The translations under genes were made by a program, and so were the position numbers. Shown piece by piece: positions 16,944-24,086 of a stretch of 64,000 nt of DNA. Origin of the DNA: an uncultured delta proteobacterium (lineage in GTDB: Bacteria > Desulfobacterota > Binatia > UBA9968). Location of the stretch: contig CAVSHR010000002.1 in NCBI GenBank assembly GCA_963727625.1, positions 608,001 to 672,000 on the forward strand. Direction: 5' to 3'. The notes under the pieces are model-generated. The model ran no database searches. It was not told the DNA's origin and saw nothing but the letters and a program-made list of their open reading frames with translations. Within the stretch, counting starts at the first letter, position 1; each line of letters starts with the position of its first letter.

Positions 16944-17058
16944 AAGGTCAATTCCCCCCGTTTCAATAAAGCTATCTGCATGTAGAAAGGCTACCACGGC
17001 GACAAATTTCGGTCGATAGGGTCAGCGAAAAATTTCGGCCAAGCCATCGCGGCGCCTT

Positions 17059-17905
17059 TTAAGGCCGATTGTCTGGCTGGGAATCGATCAATGTTCGTTT
17101 CAGCCAATCCGTTATGGTGGCTGAAACGCGCTCCTCCGCACCGACGTAAAAGTGGTCGCAATTGGGGATGATCGCGATTTCGCACGGGTCCGGCGCAGTT
17201 TTCTTTGAAGCGTTCCGCCGGATAATTTTCTTTCGGTTCCTGGTCGCCGCGGATAAAAAGTACGGGGCATTTGATCCGCTTGGCGTTCTCAACCAGATCG
17301 GGTGCGTTGGTGAGCCGGTCGAGAAACGTGCGCGCAGAGATCACCCACCACCAGGCGGGGATGAGCATGAGCGTGCGCGGCTTGCCGGCGGCGATCAACG
17401 CCTCCGCTTGTTTGATCTGGGCGGCGGTATCGCCCGCGAGTGAAAAATTTCGCGCCGAGCGGCAATTGTTCATCCGATTGCCGCCGGCGTGAGCCGAGAG
17501 CAAAACAAGCGCGCGAGTCTCCGGGTGGCGCGCCACGTGTTCGCTCGCGAGCACGCCGCCGTTGCTATGGCCTATGACGATCGGGTTATTGAATCCCTTG
17601 CCGGCCAGGTATCTTGCCGCGATTTCATTGTCTTCGATGCCATCAGCGACGGTCTGATAGGCGCCGCCGACGCATTCGCGGCTGTCGCGGGTGCTGACCG
17701 AATCATGGCCGCGGCGATTGAAGGGCATGAAATCGTAACCGAGCGCGGTGACATGCGGCGCGAGAAAGCGCGCAGCGCAAACGTAGAAGTTCATCTGGTT
17801 GCCGTGGCAATACATGGCTGCGCCCTTGCTCGGACCGTCCGGTGTGTAGTAGGCAGCATCTAAGGGATGCGTCGGGGTCGGAATGCTGATTAACTCGGTG
17901 CGCAT
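17059..17905 (-). CDS. Alpha/beta hydrolase with a frameshift near the C-terminus
   Basis: ATG at 17905 after AGGAG; CHGN, GHSNGG nucleophile elbow, FIRGDQE; catalytic His segment (IIPNCDHFY...DWL) lies in the other frame past 17186-17188. Confidence 0.8.
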
Positions 17906-18010
17906 GGGAATCTCCTGATTAACGTTTCCATGCAAGCTTATCTCTCGATTGCGACCGATTACAATGTTCTCGGTAAGCTTCTGCGCCGGGACCTTTGAAA
18001 GGGTAATATT

Positions 18011-19141
18011 ATGGTCAATCAAAAAATCGCTCCGTTTCGCGCCAATCATGTCGGCAGTCTGTTGCGCCCGCCGGAGCTGCGTCAGGCACGGGAGAAGCGC
18101 GAGAAGGGCGAGATCAGCGCGGCGCAGTTGCGGGAAGTGGAGGATCGCTGCATCCGCGACGCCGTGAAGATGCAAGAAGACGTCGGCATGCAGGGCATCA
18201 CCGACGGGGAGTTTCGCCGAACCCTCTGGCATGCTGATTTTCTGAGCCAGATCGAAGGGGTGAAAGTTGTCGAAGGACTGCTGCCCGACTCGGCCAAACA
18301 TTTTCAAAATCCCGATGCCGACGTGCAGCGCTCGCCGACTCAATTCATCGTCACCGGTCCGCTGCGCCATCCGCGCGGCATCGAAGTCGACAATTTCAAA
18401 TTCCTCGCCTCGGTCACTAAACAGACGGCCAAGCAGTGTATCCCGTCGCCGTCGCTGGTGCATTTTCGGACGGGCCGGGCCGGCGTGGATAAGACGGCGT
18501 ATCCCAATATGAAGGACTTCTTCGCCGACCTGGCGCGAGTTTATCGCAAAGAGATCGCTCAACTTGCCCAGGCGGGCTGTACCTATCTGGAGATCGACGA
18601 TGTGAATTTTGCCTATCTCTGCGATCCCAAGATGCGTGAAGGGGCAAAGAAGATCGGCGAGGACCCGGACAAACTGCCGGCGCTGTATGCCGAGTTGATC
18701 AACGAATGCATCAAGGATCGCCCGGCGAACATGTCGGTATGCACGCACCTCTGCCGCGGTAATTTCCGCAGCTCCTGGGTCGCCGAAGGGGGCTACGATC
18801 CGGTCGCCGAAGTTTTGTTTAACGCTTTGAAGGTCGACGGTTATTTTTTGGAATTCGATACTCCACGCGCGGGAAACTTCGCGCCGCTGCGTTATTTGCC
18901 CAAAGACAAAAAGCTGATTCTGGGGCTGGTCACAACCAAGAGCGGGGAATTGGAAAAGGCCGACGATCTCAAACGGCGCATCGACGAGGCGAGCAAGCTC
19001 GTGCCCTTAGACCAGCTCGGCATCAGCCCGCAGTGTGGTTTTTCGAGCACGGTGTTGGGAAACAAGCTGACCATCGATGATGAAATCGCCAAGTTGAGAT
19101 TGATTGTCGATGTCGCACGCGATGTCTGGGGCTCGGTTTGA
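18011..19141 (+). CDS. Cobalamin-independent methionine synthase catalytic-domain family protein (MetE C-terminal/YxjH-like)
   Basis: HVGSLLRP, TDGEFRR, Zn ligands HLCRGN, LEFD, SPQCGF. Confidence 0.9.
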   Translation: MVNQKIAPFRANHVGSLLRPPELRQAREKREKGEISAAQLREVEDRCIRDAVKMQEDVGMQGITDGEFRRTLWHADFLSQIEGVKVVEGLLPDSAKHFQNPDADVQRSPTQFIVTGPLRHPRGIEVDNFKFLASVTKQTAKQCIPSPSLVHFRTGRAGVDKTAYPNMKDFFADLARVYRKEIAQLAQAGCTYLEIDDVNFAYLCDPKMREGAKKIGEDPDKLPALYAELINECIKDRPANMSVCTHLCRGNFRSSWVAEGGYDPVAEVLFNALKVDGYFLEFDTPRAGNFAPLRYLPKDKKLILGLVTTKSGELEKADDLKRRIDEASKLVPLDQLGISPQCGFSSTVLGNKLTIDDEIAKLRLIVDVARDVWGSV

Positions 19142-19198: not shown

Positions 19199-20260
19199 AT
19201 GGAATATCGCGGCGAGTTTTCGCTAAAGTTCGCGATTCAAACCGCCAGCCACTACACCGTGCCCGAGCTGGTTCGCTTTGCGACGCTCGCGCACGACGAA
19301 GGATTTAAACAGGTCTGGATCAACGACAATCTGGGCCAGCGAAATATTTTTGTCGTACTCGCTGCGATCGCAGCGCAGGTTCCGATCCAACTGGGAACGT
19401 CCATTGTCGTGCCGTATTTCCGCAACCCCGTGGACATCGCCGACAGTTTGGCGGCACTTTCCGAACTAACGGGCGGACGCGAGTTGAGCGTTGGCATCGC
19501 CCGCGGCGAACCTGCCCGCGCGGGATGTCAGATTGAGGTGCGAGAACCCCTGGCGATGGTACGCGAAGCGACGTTGGCGATAAGGGCTTTGACGGCTGGA
19601 GAGACGGTTTCCTTTCGCGATTTTCCGACCTGTGCCGCTTACCATCATATCCGTCCAGAACATCAGTTTCGTTTAGCATTTTCATCTGCTTCGCCGTTGC
19701 GCTTTTATTGCGGCGGGCATGGACCAAAAATACTGCGAGTCGCCGGGGAGATCATGGACGGGGTGTTGTTCGGCGATCACTTCATTCCGCTCGCTCGCGC
19801 CGGCCGCATCGGCTCGTTGTTAGCGATCGCGCGAAGCGCCGCTGGCGCCAAGCGGAAAGTATTGTTTGATGTCTGCGAGCTTGATATTTCAGTCGCGCGC
19901 GACCGCCAGCTCGCGATCGACTTCGCCCGTCCCTTTGCCGCGCAAGTTCTAATGAATTTGGCTTTGATGGGTTTCCCCCATGACAAATTTCATGCCCTCG
20001 GAATAGAGCCCAGCCTGGTACAATCGTTGGCAAATGCTTGTACGAGCCGCGCGACGGTTCACAGAGCATCGAAGCTTCTCCCAGACAGTGCCGTAACGAG
20101 TTGCTTTGTCGCGGGCGGCCCGGAGGAGTGTCGGGATCAATTGGCCGCATTGCTGGACGAAGCCGCGCAGCTCAACATCGGCCAGATCGCTTTTGCCAAG
20201 CTTGGCCCCGATTACAACGAAGCGATTACCCTGCTGCGTCGTGAAGTATTACCGAATTGA
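19199..20260 (+). CDS. LLM-class flavin/F420-dependent oxidoreductase (Mer-like)
   Basis: VWINDNLGQRNIF, LGTSIVVPYFRNP, LSELTGGR, GPKILRVAGEIMDGV, AGGPEEC. Confidence 0.85.
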   Translation: MEYRGEFSLKFAIQTASHYTVPELVRFATLAHDEGFKQVWINDNLGQRNIFVVLAAIAAQVPIQLGTSIVVPYFRNPVDIADSLAALSELTGGRELSVGIARGEPARAGCQIEVREPLAMVREATLAIRALTAGETVSFRDFPTCAAYHHIRPEHQFRLAFSSASPLRFYCGGHGPKILRVAGEIMDGVLFGDHFIPLARAGRIGSLLAIARSAAGAKRKVLFDVCELDISVARDRQLAIDFARPFAAQVLMNLALMGFPHDKFHALGIEPSLVQSLANACTSRATVHRASKLLPDSAVTSCFVAGGPEECRDQLAALLDEAAQLNIGQIAFAKLGPDYNEAITLLRREVLPN

Positions 20261-20274
20261 CCCGCCTCGATAAT

Positions 20275-22098
20275 TTAGTCTTCTCCCAATGATTCGACGA
20301 GCGCCCGAATTGTCCTAAGTTGAAATAGACTGCTTAGGGAAACTATTAGGCCGTGTTTCACCTTGATTCGGCTAACGATCCGAGTCGCGTGCAGCGAATC
20401 CCCGCCAAGGTCAAGGAATGAATCGGTGGCGCCCACCTGATCGATTTCAAGGACTTCGGTCCAGATGGACGCCAGTTGCTGCTCCAACAAAGACCGCGGT
20501 GCAACATAGTCGTTGAGTAACGGCGGACGTTGCCGTCCTGGAGGTGGCAGTCGCTCATAATCAATTTTGAGATCCTTGGTGAGGGGCAGCTCTGCGATGA
20601 GGATAAAGGCCGTTGGAACGAGGTGTCCGGCGATTCTTTCGGACAAGGCTTCGCGCAATTGAGTAACCGTCACAATGCACCCGGCGTCGACAACGACGTA
20701 CGCACAGAGTCGGCGATCGCCAAATTCATCGGTATAATCACGCACGACGGTTTGGGATATTTCAGGCATACGCAACAAGGCTGTTTCAATTTCGCTCGAA
20801 TCGACGAATTCACCGGCAATACGGATGCGATGGTCCACTCTGCCAAGATGCGTCAGGCAGCCATCTGTGCTCAGGCTGCCTAAATCTTTAGTGCGGTAGC
20901 GGCGAACGCCGTCATAGTGTTCGACGAACCGTTCGGCCGATAACGCCGGATTGCGCCAATAACCCGTCGCGAGAAACTTGCTTTCGACTACAACTTCGCC
21001 GACGGACCCGGGCGCCAGCTCGTGTCCTCCATCGTCCGCGATACTTACGATCATATCCGGTACGGGATAGCCGGCCGGCACCGGCTCGCTCGATTCTAGC
21101 TGCGTTCGGTTATCGATGAAGAACTGGCGTACGAGTCCGCACTCTGTAGCACCGAGGCCGTTGACCAAGGTGCAATCATCGTTGAAGTTGGCTTTAAAGT
21201 GCTTGATATCCAGCGATGAGACGCGGTCTCCTTCGAGTCGCACCAGACGAATGGCAGGAAATCTGGTTGCCGGGTCCGATAGTTGCCGGAAGATCGAGGG
21301 CACGGCGTGGAAGACAGTCGCTCGTGAGTCACGCAGCCACTGCGAAATCTCCGGTAAGCTTTCGCTTCGGAGATCGTAAGGTGCGACTGTGGCGCCGTTG
21401 ACTAGCGCGCCGAACAAACTAGACACCGTGCCGCTGAAGCTCGGGTTCTGCACCAGACTCAGGGTGTCACTGGGCGCGAACCTCAGAGTGTTGGTATAGC
21501 GCATGACGTTGTGCAAGACGTTTCGATGCAAGTCCGCCACACCTTTGGGTGCGCCGGTGGACCCTGAGGTGTAAAAGACGTAGGCGCCGCTTTCCGGTGA
21601 CACCGGCTGATCGAGATTTTCGGAAGCGAACTCATCAAGACTTGTAACAGCGGTGATGACAGGAAAGCTGCCCAAGGCGTGATGGATCGAAGCATCGTGA
21701 CGTTCGATGTCCGCAATCAATGCGCAAGGTTCCAAATCTTCGATCATGCGTCGCAGAACGGAATATGGAAGCCGTTGATCCAGAGGCGCATAGGAAAACC
21801 CAGCTTTGAGAATCGCCATGGTCCAGACAATCGACACATAACCCTGGCTCATCAACATTGCGATCGGCCTTGTATCGCCGCGAACGGTGGCCAGCAGCCG
21901 GCGCGCGGCGCGATTGGCCGCAGCGTTGAGCTCGGCGTAGGCGATATCCGCGGATTGCAGCCTGACAGCGGGAGCATTGGGGCGGTGGCGCGCTTGTTGC
22001 TCAAAACGTCGATGGATCGGCTGCTCGCATTCGCCTGCGTCGAATGCCACAAACGTTTCTGGTACGCGCAGACTCTTTCTCGCCGCGAGATCCTTCAT
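20275..22098 (-). CDS. Stand-alone NRPS-like adenylation + carrier protein (A-T) didomain
   Basis: YAELNAAAN, YTSGSTGAPKGV, GYWRNP, YRTKDLG, LGRVD; PCP motif FLDLGGDSL. Confidence 0.88.
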   Translation of the reverse strand: MKDLAARKSLRVPETFVAFDAGECEQPIHRRFEQQARHRPNAPAVRLQSADIAYAELNAAANRAARRLLATVRGDTRPIAMLMSQGYVSIVWTMAILKAGFSYAPLDQRLPYSVLRRMIEDLEPCALIADIERHDASIHHALGSFPVITAVTSLDEFASENLDQPVSPESGAYVFYTSGSTGAPKGVADLHRNVLHNVMRYTNTLRFAPSDTLSLVQNPSFSGTVSSLFGALVNGATVAPYDLRSESLPEISQWLRDSRATVFHAVPSIFRQLSDPATRFPAIRLVRLEGDRVSSLDIKHFKANFNDDCTLVNGLGATECGLVRQFFIDNRTQLESSEPVPAGYPVPDMIVSIADDGGHELAPGSVGEVVVESKFLATGYWRNPALSAERFVEHYDGVRRYRTKDLGSLSTDGCLTHLGRVDHRIRIAGEFVDSSEIETALLRMPEISQTVVRDYTDEFGDRRLCAYVVVDAGCIVTVTQLREALSERIAGHLVPTAFILIAELPLTKDLKIDYERLPPPGRQRPPLLNDYVAPRSLLEQQLASIWTEVLEIDQVGATDSFLDLGGDSLHATRIVSRIKVKHGLIVSLSSLFQLRTIRALVESLGED

Positions 22099-22509
22099 GA
22101 TTGACGTCGATGGTTAGGCCGCTTGAAATGACCGCTTAGGAATTTGAACGGGAAATGTTTTTCACCCGTCGTAATGAACGGAAAAACTAGCGCTATCGAT
22201 GGTCCAGCCTCCCTAGACGTCAGCGCCCCGGTAGCCTATTGTAACAACGGAAAGGGCAACTCTGAAACAAATTTCGTTGCGGAAAGTAAGCGAGGGAACA
22301 AACGAAGTCAAACTGAGAATCACTGTAAGGTTTTGGGTGATTATTAAACTAAGAGCCAGAATCCTAGACCGGCTCGTGGACCTCACATGCAGTGTCTGTG
22401 GGGGTATTCGACCTTCGCAACTTTTTCCCATGCAAAGCTATCCTAGTAAGTGTACATCTGTATTCATGAACGCGTATTCTCGGTCCTAGGAGGCCGTAGA
22501 ACGGTGGCA

Positions 22510-23706
22510 ATGACGGAAACCATAGACGCTGCTCACGATTTTTCGGCTATTTCCCTTGAGGAAATAATCGCGCGTCTTGAAGACCGGGCGCTGGTCATTC
22601 TCAACGTCATGCCCAAGGAGACTTACGCAGACGGGCATATTCCTAGTTCCATCAATTTGCCAGTCGCTGAAATCGAAGCGAAGGCGCGGGCGCTGATTTC
22701 CAATCTCGCCCAAGAGATCGCTGTCTATTGCGCCGGGCCGACGTGACCCCTGGGCAAGCAGGCGGTGGGTCTGCTCCAAGGGCTGGGTTACACGAAGCTG
22801 CGCTACTACGTAGGCGGCATGGTGGAGTGGGTCGAACACAACGGCCCCATAGAGCGCACTGCTCCCTCAATCGCGGATAAGCCGGCAGTCGCGGCGCCGC
22901 GCCCCGGCGCCTCGCGCGGTTTTTCGTGGTTGGAGGTCCTTGCGAATTGGCCGCTGGATCGACTCGTCAGCTGCTGGCTCGGTATGATCGTCGTCTTTGG
23001 GTTGATTTACTGGCTTGCCGGAATCGGCATGGCTTCGGGGTTGCAGGCCGGCAACGTCGCCGTGATGCCGGACCTGAACGGCCTGGGCACGGCGATCTAT
23101 TTTAGCTTCGTTACCGCGCTCTCGATCGGCTACGGAGATGTGATTCCCGCCGGCGCGCTGCGCATTCTCGCGGTGATCGAAGGCATCGGCGGTTTGCTGA
23201 TCTTCGGCTGCGTGATTTCCAAGCTGGTTTCGCGCCGCCAGGAGGAATTGACGGAAGAAATCCATCGCACCACCTTCGAGGATCGGCTGGATCGGGTGCG
23301 GACCAATCTCCATTTGGTCTTTTCCGATCTCGGCGCGGTGCAGCAGCTGCAAGCGGAGCAGGGCGCTTTGGCCGGACCGGTGATGCGCCGGCTCGAGAGC
23401 ACCGTGCGGGTGTTTCGCGGCGAACTGCAAACCATCCACGACCTGCTCTACAGAGCACGCATAGAGGCGGACGAGGAAAGCCTGGAATCGCTGCTTGCCA
23501 ATCTAGTCATTTGTCTCCAAAGCCTGGTCGAGATCAATGCATCACGGCCGGCCGGCGACGGCCAAGCCGCGGCCCTCGACGCCGGTCTGCGCGCGGTCGG
23601 CAACTTGGCAAAGGAAATCTGCGGCGAGTGCGTGCCGCGGGTTTATGCGCCGGCGCTGAAGGAGTCGATGGATCAGATCCAAGATCTGGCACGCCGCTTC
23701 GCGTAA
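22510..23706 (+). CDS. Probable selenoprotein: rhodanese domain (C-x4-U) fused to a 2-TM potassium-channel pore and helical C-terminal domain
   Basis: ORFs 22450-22746 and 22765-23706 share a frame, separated only by TGA 22744-22746; read-through gives GHIPSSINLP...VYCAGPT-U-PLGKQAVGLLQGLGYTKLRYYVGGMVEW, then YFSFVTALSIGYGD; alternative GTG start at 22504. Confidence 0.82.
22747..22782 (+). promoter_or_regulatory. Candidate bacterial SECIS element
   Basis: Upper stem AGCAGGC (22757-63) / GTCTGCT (22769-75); loop GGTGG starts with G, 17 nt after UGA; lower stem CCC-TGG / CCA-GGG. Confidence 0.72.
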
Positions 23707-23780: not shown

Positions 23781-24086
23781 ATGAGAACGGCAATATAAAC
23801 ACTTTTACCAATGATTGCCCTGATGTGGATCCTTACCGGCTGTCAGGCGCTCACCGGGCAAACCCTCGGGGAGAACATCGACGACACGACGATCACCACC
23901 ACCGTGAAGGCGAAGCTTGCCGCGGAAAAAGGCTCAACACTAACGCGCATCGGGGTGGATACCAATCGGGGCGTGGTCCAATTGTCGGGCGTGGTGAGAT
24001 CAGCGGCCGACCGCAGTCTCGCCGAGCGGGTCGCGCGCGGCGTCAGCGGGGTCAAAAGCGTGGTCAATAATCTACAAATCCAATAA
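23781..24086 (+). CDS. BON-domain lipoprotein (OsmY-like), with an in-frame TAA at codon 6
   Basis: LTGC lipobox, IDDTTITTTVKAKL, GVVQLSG, GVKSVVNNL; GGAGG-ATG 23781 then TAA 23796-98; alternative ATG at 23811. Confidence 0.8.

Follow-up and report, generated by a model that had tools for sequence, protein, structure and literature searches.

The gene described here lies on the forward strand of a 64,000-nucleotide (nt) stretch of contig CAVSHR010000002.1 (the window; contig positions 608,001–672,000), from an uncultured delta proteobacterium of the lineage Binatia, and it appears to encode a selenoprotein in which a rhodanese domain is joined to a potassium-channel pore. Two open reading frames (ORFs) in one frame, 22450–22746 and 22765–23706, are interrupted only by a TGA at 22744–22746. 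With this TGA translated as selenocysteine (Sec, U), 22510–23706 gives 398 residues with a single U at position 79, and the read-through from ATG 22510 contains ...VYCAGPT-U-PLGKQAVGLLQGLGYTKLRYYVGGMVEW... (residue numbers throughout count from this ATG). The product would be 398 amino acids (aa) long from ATG 22510 and 400 aa from GTG 22504, in which case Sec is residue 81. The GTG is probably the true start, because AGGAGG lies 10 nt upstream and the resulting MAMTET parallels the MAKPQT of orthologues. The features of the gene are listed below.

22488–22493, + strand: Shine–Dalgarno-like AGGAGG, read directly from the sequence, upstream of GTG 22504
22504–23706, + strand: whole gene, with a probable GTG start, an in-frame TGA read as Sec and a TAA stop at 23704–23706
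22555–22836, + strand: rhodanese domain, residues 16–109, interrupted by the TGA (Pfam PF00581, E 1.9e-14, 54.4 bits against a cut-off of 22.2)
22729–22731, + strand: TGC, Cys74, at the catalytic position in the rhodanese loop, aligned with the loop Cys of 1yt8 and 6mxv
22744–22746, + strand: in-frame TGA, read as selenocysteine U79, five residues past Cys74 (C-A-G-P-T-U)
22757–22775, + strand: hairpin resembling a selenocysteine insertion sequence (SECIS), with 5′ arm AGCAGGC (22757–22763), loop GGTGG (22764–22768) and 3′ arm GTCTGCT (22769–22775)
22837–22962, + strand: Pro/Ala-rich linker, residues 110–151, in gapped, poorly conserved alignment columns; its length and sequence vary among relatives
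22963–23037, + strand: first transmembrane segment (TM1), about residues 152–176 (hydropathy peak, 19-residue window)
23077–23139, + strand: pore helix and selectivity filter, residues 190–210, with SIGYGD at 23122–23139 (Pfam Ion_trans_2)
23149–23229, + strand: second transmembrane segment (TM2), the inner helix, about residues 214–240 (hydropathy peak)
23236–23703, + strand: C-terminal cytoplasmic domain, residues 243–398 (156 aa), helical, of no assigned family
23620–23631, + strand: C371-G-E-C374 (CxxC) in the C-terminal domain, invariant in alignment A5

Domains on either side of the TGA

A single Pfam Rhodanese match spans the TGA at residue 79, so neither ORF half corresponds to a whole domain. 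The score lies above the curated cut-off and the active-site loop holds a Cys, as expected of a rhodanese homology domain, and profile searches of the PDB match this part to the rhodaneses 1yt8, 6mxv and 3ilm. In the profile alignment, C74-A-G-P-T-U79 lies against the C-A-G-R-T-R loop in domain 2 of the four-domain sulfurtransferase 1yt8, with U79 paired to the sixth loop residue (Arg). Sec would therefore occupy the sixth loop position, and the catalytic-position Cys is retained; C74 is invariant in all 46 rows of alignment A5. Other rhodaneses show a two-residue gap at the Sec loop in the profile alignment, and the exact loop geometry is therefore uncertain.

Beyond the linker, the protein has the sequence hallmarks of a P-loop K+ channel: a profile match, two transmembrane peaks around a pore helix and a SIGYGD filter. 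Pfam Ion_trans_2 (PF07885) matches residues 170–241 (E 4.9e-12, 46 bits against a cut-off of 22.5), and PDB profiles match the pore region to KcsA, KirBac3.1 and TOK1. F198, S199, G209 and D210 are invariant in the 46 rows of A5.

These results bear out the gene model of the original prediction, which was made from the letters of the window. It had proposed one TGA splitting two same-frame ORFs in mid-rhodanese, on which the ORF reading and the Pfam match across the TGA agree; a VYCAGPT-[TGA] read-through sequence, which the translation reproduces exactly; two halves of which neither is a complete rhodanese; and a C-x4-U loop with the TGA at the second Cys, in which the first Cys of Y-C-x4-[C/U] proved invariant. 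Its start at 22504, giving a protein of about 400 aa, is the one favoured by the AGGAGG spacing and the MAMTET/MAKPQT parallel. The TALSIGYGD filter between transmembrane segments was recovered with two flanking hydropathy peaks, and the AGCAGGC/GTCTGCT hairpin, with its GGTGG loop 17 nt from the TGA, was found as described.

Conservation and decoding of the TGA

A six-frame search of 61 kin genomes found a long orthologue in 11 genomes besides the window's own (54–77% identity), each with exactly one TGA in the match. With the window included, the TGA falls in the same column in 12 of 12 (54–100% identity; 11 of 11 if the unpublished genome G035 is left aside), within the motif C-x-x-[P/F]-T-U-P-L-G. 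A scan of a genome collection, one genome per species, gave 25 loci, 20 reaching the TGA column and 5 partial, and all 20 covering loci have TGA there. Those at 63–77% identity are titled Candidatus Binatia, 'Deltaproteobacteria', Syntrophobacter sp. SbD2 and Thermodesulfobacteriota; more distant ones are Methylomirabilota (55%), a Gemmatimonas-labelled metagenome-assembled genome (MAG; 47%) and Acidobacteriota (44–48%). The best 80 metagenome loci comprise 73 that reach the column, every one with TGA, and 7 that begin downstream of it; all 80 are close TGA forms, Cys forms having been compared as protein rather than DNA. Overall, TGA occupies the column in 94 of the 94 loci that reach it, at 44–86% identity and under four phylum labels, and these loci contain 65 distinct 54-nt stretches downstream of the TGA.

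Third codon positions are the most variable on both sides of the TGA, a coding-type pattern in one frame (mean variability at positions 1/2/3 of 0.24/0.15/0.46 upstream and 0.22/0.17/0.40 downstream). Metagenome contigs cover the gene in patches, and the only one to bridge the TGA, which spans 22616–22776 and differs from the window at 22 positions, is identical at 22744–22746. Together, the conservation of the TGA across loci, the coding pattern on both of its sides and this independent contig exclude pseudogene decay and the assembly error (TGC or TGT in place of TGA) for which the original prediction had allowed.

If the TGA really ended translation, or had arisen through a pseudogene lesion or faulty assembly, the locus would yield a rhodanese fragment of 78–98 aa and a 313-aa channel with its own start, or nothing functional. 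Gene callers annotate the family in this way everywhere (the best 120 of 962 database matches, described below, are all short), and TGA is an ordinary stop in the lineage, where it terminates this same gene in several orthologues. Such a stop would nevertheless have to be kept in one column across all 94 covering loci and four phylum labels, between two stretches that are both conserved as coding, and in the divergent contig as well. It would also split the protein in mid-fold. The opening GTG of the downstream ORF (22765) is a Val codon inside the hairpin loop, and no conserved internal start is visible, because the called ORFs of relatives (295–321 aa) start at varying points; homologues with Cys are single-piece. 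We therefore consider a true stop or lesion scarcely credible.

The protein homologues point the same way. An exhaustive phmmer search returned 6340 matches at E <= 0.001 and 88 at E <= 1e-30, and the first 89 listed rows, including one at 1.7e-30, were classified. Full-length fusions account for 11 of these 89 representatives, with Cys at the Sec column in 9, Gly in 1 and Ser in 1, whereas 46 start within residues 80–100, just past that column. Of the remainder, one consists of the rhodanese part only and 31 are fragments or other partial matches. The late-starting representatives that were read begin with the C-terminal half of the rhodanese, for example MGYTHVRHYHGGMADW, and from these start points, at the protein level, we infer that the 46 are Sec forms truncated by gene callers. 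A candidate sensor-less subfamily (P0134, P0137, P0138, P0148, P0151, P0153 and P0156) was rejected, each member starting with the rhodanese C-terminal half past the Sec column. In a collection of 5.8 billion proteins, 962 matches were obtained at E <= 1e-3; the best 120 of these, which were characterized, are all 295–321 aa long and cover 74–80% of the query. Where names are given, they are 'potassium channel LctB' (JGI), 'ion channel' and 'potassium channel family protein'.

Three expectations of the original prediction are thus borne out: that standard gene callers would split the gene, that homologues would carry TGA or Cys at the column (TGA in all 94 covering loci, Cys in 9 of 11 full-length homologues), and that these homologues would keep the channel fusion. 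In a FastTree phylogeny of the pore and tail, the Cys, Gly and Ser forms are scattered among Sec-type rows. The state of the Sec column changes 7 times on the best tree, and at least 3 changes are forced by well-supported branches. Sec-type clusters outnumber Cys-type ones among the representatives, at 46 against 9. This distribution is compatible with an ancestral Sec that was repeatedly lost, although the tree has no established root.

The genome has the machinery for Sec insertion that the original prediction called for, namely selA, selB, selC (the tRNA for Sec) and selD. On contig C5, selA (E 4e-158), selB and selD lie within about 4 kb (C5:715340–719466), and the tRNA-SeC gene, with anticodon tca, lies about 50 kb away (C5:768830–768924). 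The selD gene carries an in-frame TGA of its own (..KAAG-U-AAKLG..). The formate dehydrogenase (FdhA) homologues of the genome have no in-frame stop and hence provide no reference SECIS. Among the kin genomes that carry the gene, 11 of 12 have a strong SelA match, and G009, a 670-contig MAG, has a weak match only. Because nearly all kin have SelA, its presence among them is consistent with Sec without being discriminating. The distant carriers are more telling: SelA was found in 5 of 5 tested (Methylomirabilota, the Gemmatimonas-labelled MAG and three Acidobacteriota) versus 2 of 14 control genomes.

Outside the window, contig C9 of the same genome carries another candidate rhodanese selenoprotein (~C9:51320–51940), with an in-frame TGA at ~C9:51650. 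It is a secreted-looking, single-domain protein (...RPVVLY-U-ACPHH...) in which Sec would stand at the catalytic position (U-A-C), and many kin genomes contain matches of about 105 aa, with one TGA, that are similar to it.

Bacterial SECIS elements are stem-loops that directly follow the UGA and have G/U at the apex; the fdhF element of E. coli, too, presents an apical GU, about as far from its UGA as the hairpin of the window does. Judged by these criteria, that hairpin is of the same kind, a stem-loop directly 3′ of the UGA with an apical G/U. Its stem begins 11–13 nt, and its loop 17 nt, past the codon. The top of the hairpin reads (G/C)-G-U-(C/G)-G, and a GCC GTC GGC variant forms a 7-bp stem with a GUC triloop. 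Hairpins also lie behind the selD TGA of the same genome (GUGCAA-GUC-UUGCAC) and behind the C9 rhodanese TGA (GGCCA-GUC-UGGCC, beginning 17 nt downstream), and an apical GU(C/G) is common to all three.

Across the 65 distinct sequences, columns 14–20 pair with columns 26–32 (counted from the T of the TGA as 1). Standard pairs fill 92.7% of cells, compared with 26–46% when the 3′ partners are slid by 1–3 columns, and none of 500 within-column shuffles reaches the observed value. Because the hairpin overlaps the conserved peptide Q-A-V-G-L-L, the useful evidence comes from synonymous sites. Pair 18–28, which joins the third base of the Gln codon to the first base of a Leu codon, is G-C in 44 sequences, G-U in 11, A-U in 9, another combination in 1 and A-C in none. 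CAA is not once found together with CTG; when these codons are left out of the gene tree, CAA shows at least 6 separate origins, each on a TTR background (8 of 8 rows). Of 55 rows, 54 have a final G in the Leu codon of the 3′ arm; at 33 other conserved Leu columns the share is 21–78%. The third bases of the loop (GCN, GTN) vary freely. Q-A-V-G-L-L is kept in Sec forms and is not conserved in 11 Cys-column homologues (KAVESL, MATERL, DAQVIL, QAAEAL and others). If the tight conservation of the peptide in Sec forms is imposed by the RNA, its loss in Cys forms would be expected.

Several results weigh against a hairpin-directed decoding. Within-column shuffles are still 91.1% paired, so the pairing comes mostly from conserved columns, and the argument at the RNA level rests on few synonymous sites together with the contrast with Cys forms. 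A sign test on independent pairs gave no significant covariation at 18–28 (median p 0.5). Folding of the single sequence over 57 nt predicts the hairpin, with a stability no better than that of shuffles (z = 0.44); RNAalifold returned a weak, different 4-bp helix (−0.74 kcal/mol) rather than the hairpin; and Rfam gave a chance match (E 8.1) and no SECIS family. The search of sequencing runs, which recovered small shares of the locus in 5 DNA runs, found no RNA run.

Alternatively, through a variant code or near-cognate suppression, the UGA might be translated as Trp, Cys or Gly rather than as Sec. The inserted residue is not decidable from sequence alone, and the Sec pathway can insert Cys at UGA when selenium is scarce. 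Set against this, TGA is a normal stop in the genome and its kin, the genome has the complete set of Sec genes, the corresponding residue of homologues is Cys, a hallmark of Sec sites, and the SECIS-like hairpin is conserved only in TGA forms. We regard a standard residue as very improbable. Sec decoding of the UGA within a single-gene architecture is, by contrast, very probable, and the best explanation of the locus, itself highly likely, is that 22504–23706 is one selenoprotein gene of about 400 aa with UGA 22744 decoded as Sec. Decoding would be carried out by SelA, SelB, SelD and tRNA-Sec, directed by the short apical-GU hairpin.

The channel, its possible gating and the neighbouring genes

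Read in this way, the protein would consist of a rhodanese in the cytoplasm, a linker that varies among relatives, a KcsA-like K+ pore with two transmembrane segments, and a 156-residue helical domain with an invariant His and an invariant CxxC. Given two transmembrane segments, no evident signal peptide and basic residues after TM2, the N and C termini should both lie in the cytoplasm, where four rhodaneses and four C-terminal domains would ring the inner mouth of the pore. Every Sec form examined has an intact [ST]-x-G-[YF]-G-D filter. One Acidobacteriota-labelled locus (L041:3001–4251) is anomalous: its rhodanese-to-pore stretch is of low complexity, rich in Arg, Pro and Ser and without TM1, and the family sequence resumes at the pore helix, which looks like a frameshift pair or an assembly problem in the MAG.

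The C-terminal domain is the most conserved part of the protein, and conservation peaks directly after TM2 (SKLVSRRQEELTEEIHR..FEDRL.RVRTNLHLV). Q244, E245, H252, R259, L260, R262, L267, R294, L312, C371 and C374 are invariant in the 46 rows; among the 95 representatives listed, P0179 (D, C) is the only row spanning both columns in which the CxxC is not intact. P0139 (565 aa) has the same architecture and ends in an additional AhpC/TSA peroxiredoxin domain (E 2.8e-25). This naturally occurring fusion links the architecture to the chemistry of thiols or peroxides.

The original prediction had already suggested a pore that responds, through the C-x4-U loop, to persulfide, selenium or redox state. 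We propose, tentatively and as an inference, that the channel is gated by persulfidation or oxidation of the rhodanese with resolution by Sec. The rhodanese Cys would accept sulfane sulfur or become oxidized; the neighbouring Sec would resolve this modification to a selenenyl-sulfide (Se–S) link, which might be relayed to the C-terminal CxxC; and the changed cytoplasmic assembly, seated on the inner helices, would open or close the K+ pore. K+ flux would thereby be coupled to the sulfur, thiol or peroxide state of the cell. Because the UGA precedes the pore in gene order, the complete channel could not be produced unless Sec is inserted, which requires a supply of selenium.

Two observations speak against gating of this kind. 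Residues 243–398 match no Pfam family at E <= 10 and no PDB sequence. In the Cys-form clade of P0133 (455 aa) and P0139, which has the added AhpC/TSA domain, the filter has degenerated to S-A-S-Y-G-D and there is no Ion_trans_2 match; conduction may not be essential to every member. In the whole protein, no RCK/TrkA, Kir cytoplasmic or Kef domain was found at Pfam E <= 0.1, and an IRK match (15.4 bits) stays below its cut-off and covers the transmembrane part only.

Genes near the channel gene were counted in 46 loci of at least 3.5 kb. Those of the window are as follows.

18011–19141, + strand: MetE-like protein (cobalamin-independent methionine synthase catalytic domain; Pfam Meth_synt_2, E 1.2e-19)
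19199–20260, + strand: luciferase-like monooxygenase, lying between the MetE-like and channel genes as if inserted
20275–22098, − strand: AMP-binding/PP-binding protein, also lying between the two as if inserted
23811–24086, + strand: small BON-domain protein directly downstream of the channel gene (Pfam BON, E 1.7e-19; lipoprotein-like, of a family that includes OsmY)

A MetE-like homologue lies at most 2.2 kb from the gene in 22 of the 46 loci, five Acidobacteriota-labelled ones among them, and is often directly adjacent. An NMT1-like binding protein is near the gene in 21 loci. A BON ORF follows on the same strand in 20, all of the closest clade, and may be co-transcribed with the channel gene. 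None of these neighbours (MetE-like, BON or NMT1-like) assigns a ligand. In the window, the ORFs at 16991–18748 (− strand) and 18011–19141 (+ strand) overlap by about 740 nt; for one of the two, the start was probably called too far upstream.

The MetE-like neighbour is relevant to another reading, in which the rhodanese acts as an enzyme and the tetrameric pore-like module anchors or oligomerizes a Sec-dependent sulfur or selenium transferase at the membrane, with conduction secondary or absent. Such an enzyme could, for example, supply a partner with sulfane sulfur or selenium, or detoxify a compound that reacts with thiols or selenols. Rhodaneses are sulfurtransferases, and the Sec rhodaneses catalogued in the main text of a 2026 review of the prokaryotic selenoproteome (PMC13188914) are all presumed enzymes. 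The MetE-like thiol methyltransferase homologue recurs near the gene across phylum labels, and P0133 and P0139 have lost the first Gly of GYG and retain the rhodanese, the C-terminal domain and the CxxC. The intact filter of all Sec forms examined, and the invariance of F198, S199, G209 and D210, are nevertheless hard to explain without ion passage, and no other feature of the protein suggests a substrate channel. We judge this reading unlikely.

Less likely still is a metal-gated channel, in which the C-x4-U loop, H252 and C371-x-x-C374 would together bind Zn, Cu, Hg, As or Se as a metal or metalloid site. The invariant His and the two Cys of the C-terminal domain, besides the Cys/Sec pair, would suit such a site, and several of the predicted Sec transport proteins described in the text of the review are linked to metal or metalloid resistance, with Sec as a proposed ligand (PMC13188914). 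The peroxiredoxin fusion of P0139, however, points to peroxide and thiol chemistry, and no metal-resistance genes were seen among the conserved neighbours in the 46 loci. Gating through the rhodanese, tentative as it is, ranks ahead of both the membrane-anchored enzyme and the metal site.

If that gating proposal holds, the family would be the first natural Sec-bearing ion channel, a K+ channel of soil and sediment bacteria under at least four phylum labels, whose pore is gated by a C-x4-U persulfide or peroxide switch. We advance this combined statement with yet more reserve than the gating proposal itself.

Relation to known systems

The original prediction stated that no Sec ion channel had been described, and within their scope the searches of the literature and of NCBIfam 20.0 agree. 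Full-text searches returned nothing relevant on a selenoprotein or selenocysteine together with a potassium or ion channel, nor on a fusion of rhodanese and potassium channel. In the main text of the 2026 review (PMC13188914), 'channel', 'potassium', 'PF07885' and 'CxxxxU' occur 0 times each. The available text of a 2022 review (PMC9312934) and of the Sargasso (PMC1088965), algal (PMC7539508) and deep-Sep (PMC12013277) papers mentions no such protein. All NCBIfam 20.0 models stay below their cut-offs, the highest-scoring ones for selenoproteins being TsoB (NF045694; 23 bits against 805) and rhodanese_LYCAU (NF041203; 23 against 115). The literature and databases searched thus contain no description of the C-x4-U form, of its joining with a P-loop channel or of the C-terminal domain, although supplementary tables might list them.

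Public databases file this abundant family as short 'potassium channel family protein' or 'LctB' entries in which the sensor half is lost, and a curated model with a Sec exception would correct them. The prokaryotic selenoproteome would gain both a rhodanese Sec form (C-x4-U) and a protein class, the P-loop ion channels, in carriers such as Binatia and Acidobacteriota. As a candidate K+ channel gated by redox state or sulfane sulfur, the family is compact and genetically simple. With U, C, S and G all occurring naturally at the key position, control of an ion pore by thiol or persulfide chemistry becomes directly testable. The C-terminal domain places a conserved fold of no known family at a channel gate. 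If the proposed decoding is right, synthesis of the channel would itself depend on the selenium supply, the UGA standing before the pore.

Among known selenoproteins, the closest parallels are rhodanese_LYCAU (CxU) and TsoB, which likewise have Sec in or next to the rhodanese active-site loop and give their weak matches over the rhodanese part. The text of the 2026 review distinguishes five rhodanese forms, UxxS, UxxG, CxU, UxxG and UxxxxU, the last being TsoB (PMC13188914). TsoB, a rhodanese/DsbD fusion-like protein, shares the i/i+5 spacing (U-x4-U) and is also fused to a membrane module; its partner is DsbD, whereas that of the window protein is a K+ channel pore. The window protein differs from the Sec rhodaneses catalogued there in being C-x4-U, with Cys at the catalytic position and Sec at the sixth position of the loop. 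The same text describes predicted Sec transport proteins, namely a mercuric transport protein, an E1-E2 cation ATPase, YeeE/YedE, the SaoP permease and the SO_0444 Cu/Zn efflux transporter (PMC13188914). These are alike in combining membrane transport with a Sec predicted by comparative genomics. They differ in being carriers, pumps and permeases, mostly tied to metals, with no P-loop ion channel among those described in that text.

Seen separately, the recoding of UGA, rhodanese selenoproteins and sensor-coupled K+ channels are all known. K+ systems with cytoplasmic chemical sensors include the RCK-gated MthK and Kch, glutathione-gated KefC, the Kv-beta oxidoreductase subunit and persulfidated K-ATP channels. 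They embody the same concept, a cytoplasmic ligand or redox module on a K+ pathway, with gating in the window protein standing as a proposal; to our knowledge, none of them has a rhodanese or selenocysteine. With KcsA-type two-transmembrane channels, the window protein has TM1, the pore helix, the G-Y-G-D filter and TM2 in common. It departs from them in its Ser in place of Thr before x-G-Y-G, its N-terminal rhodanese and its Sec, and its C-terminal domain takes the place of the KcsA helical bundle, the RCK domains or the Kir cytoplasmic domain.

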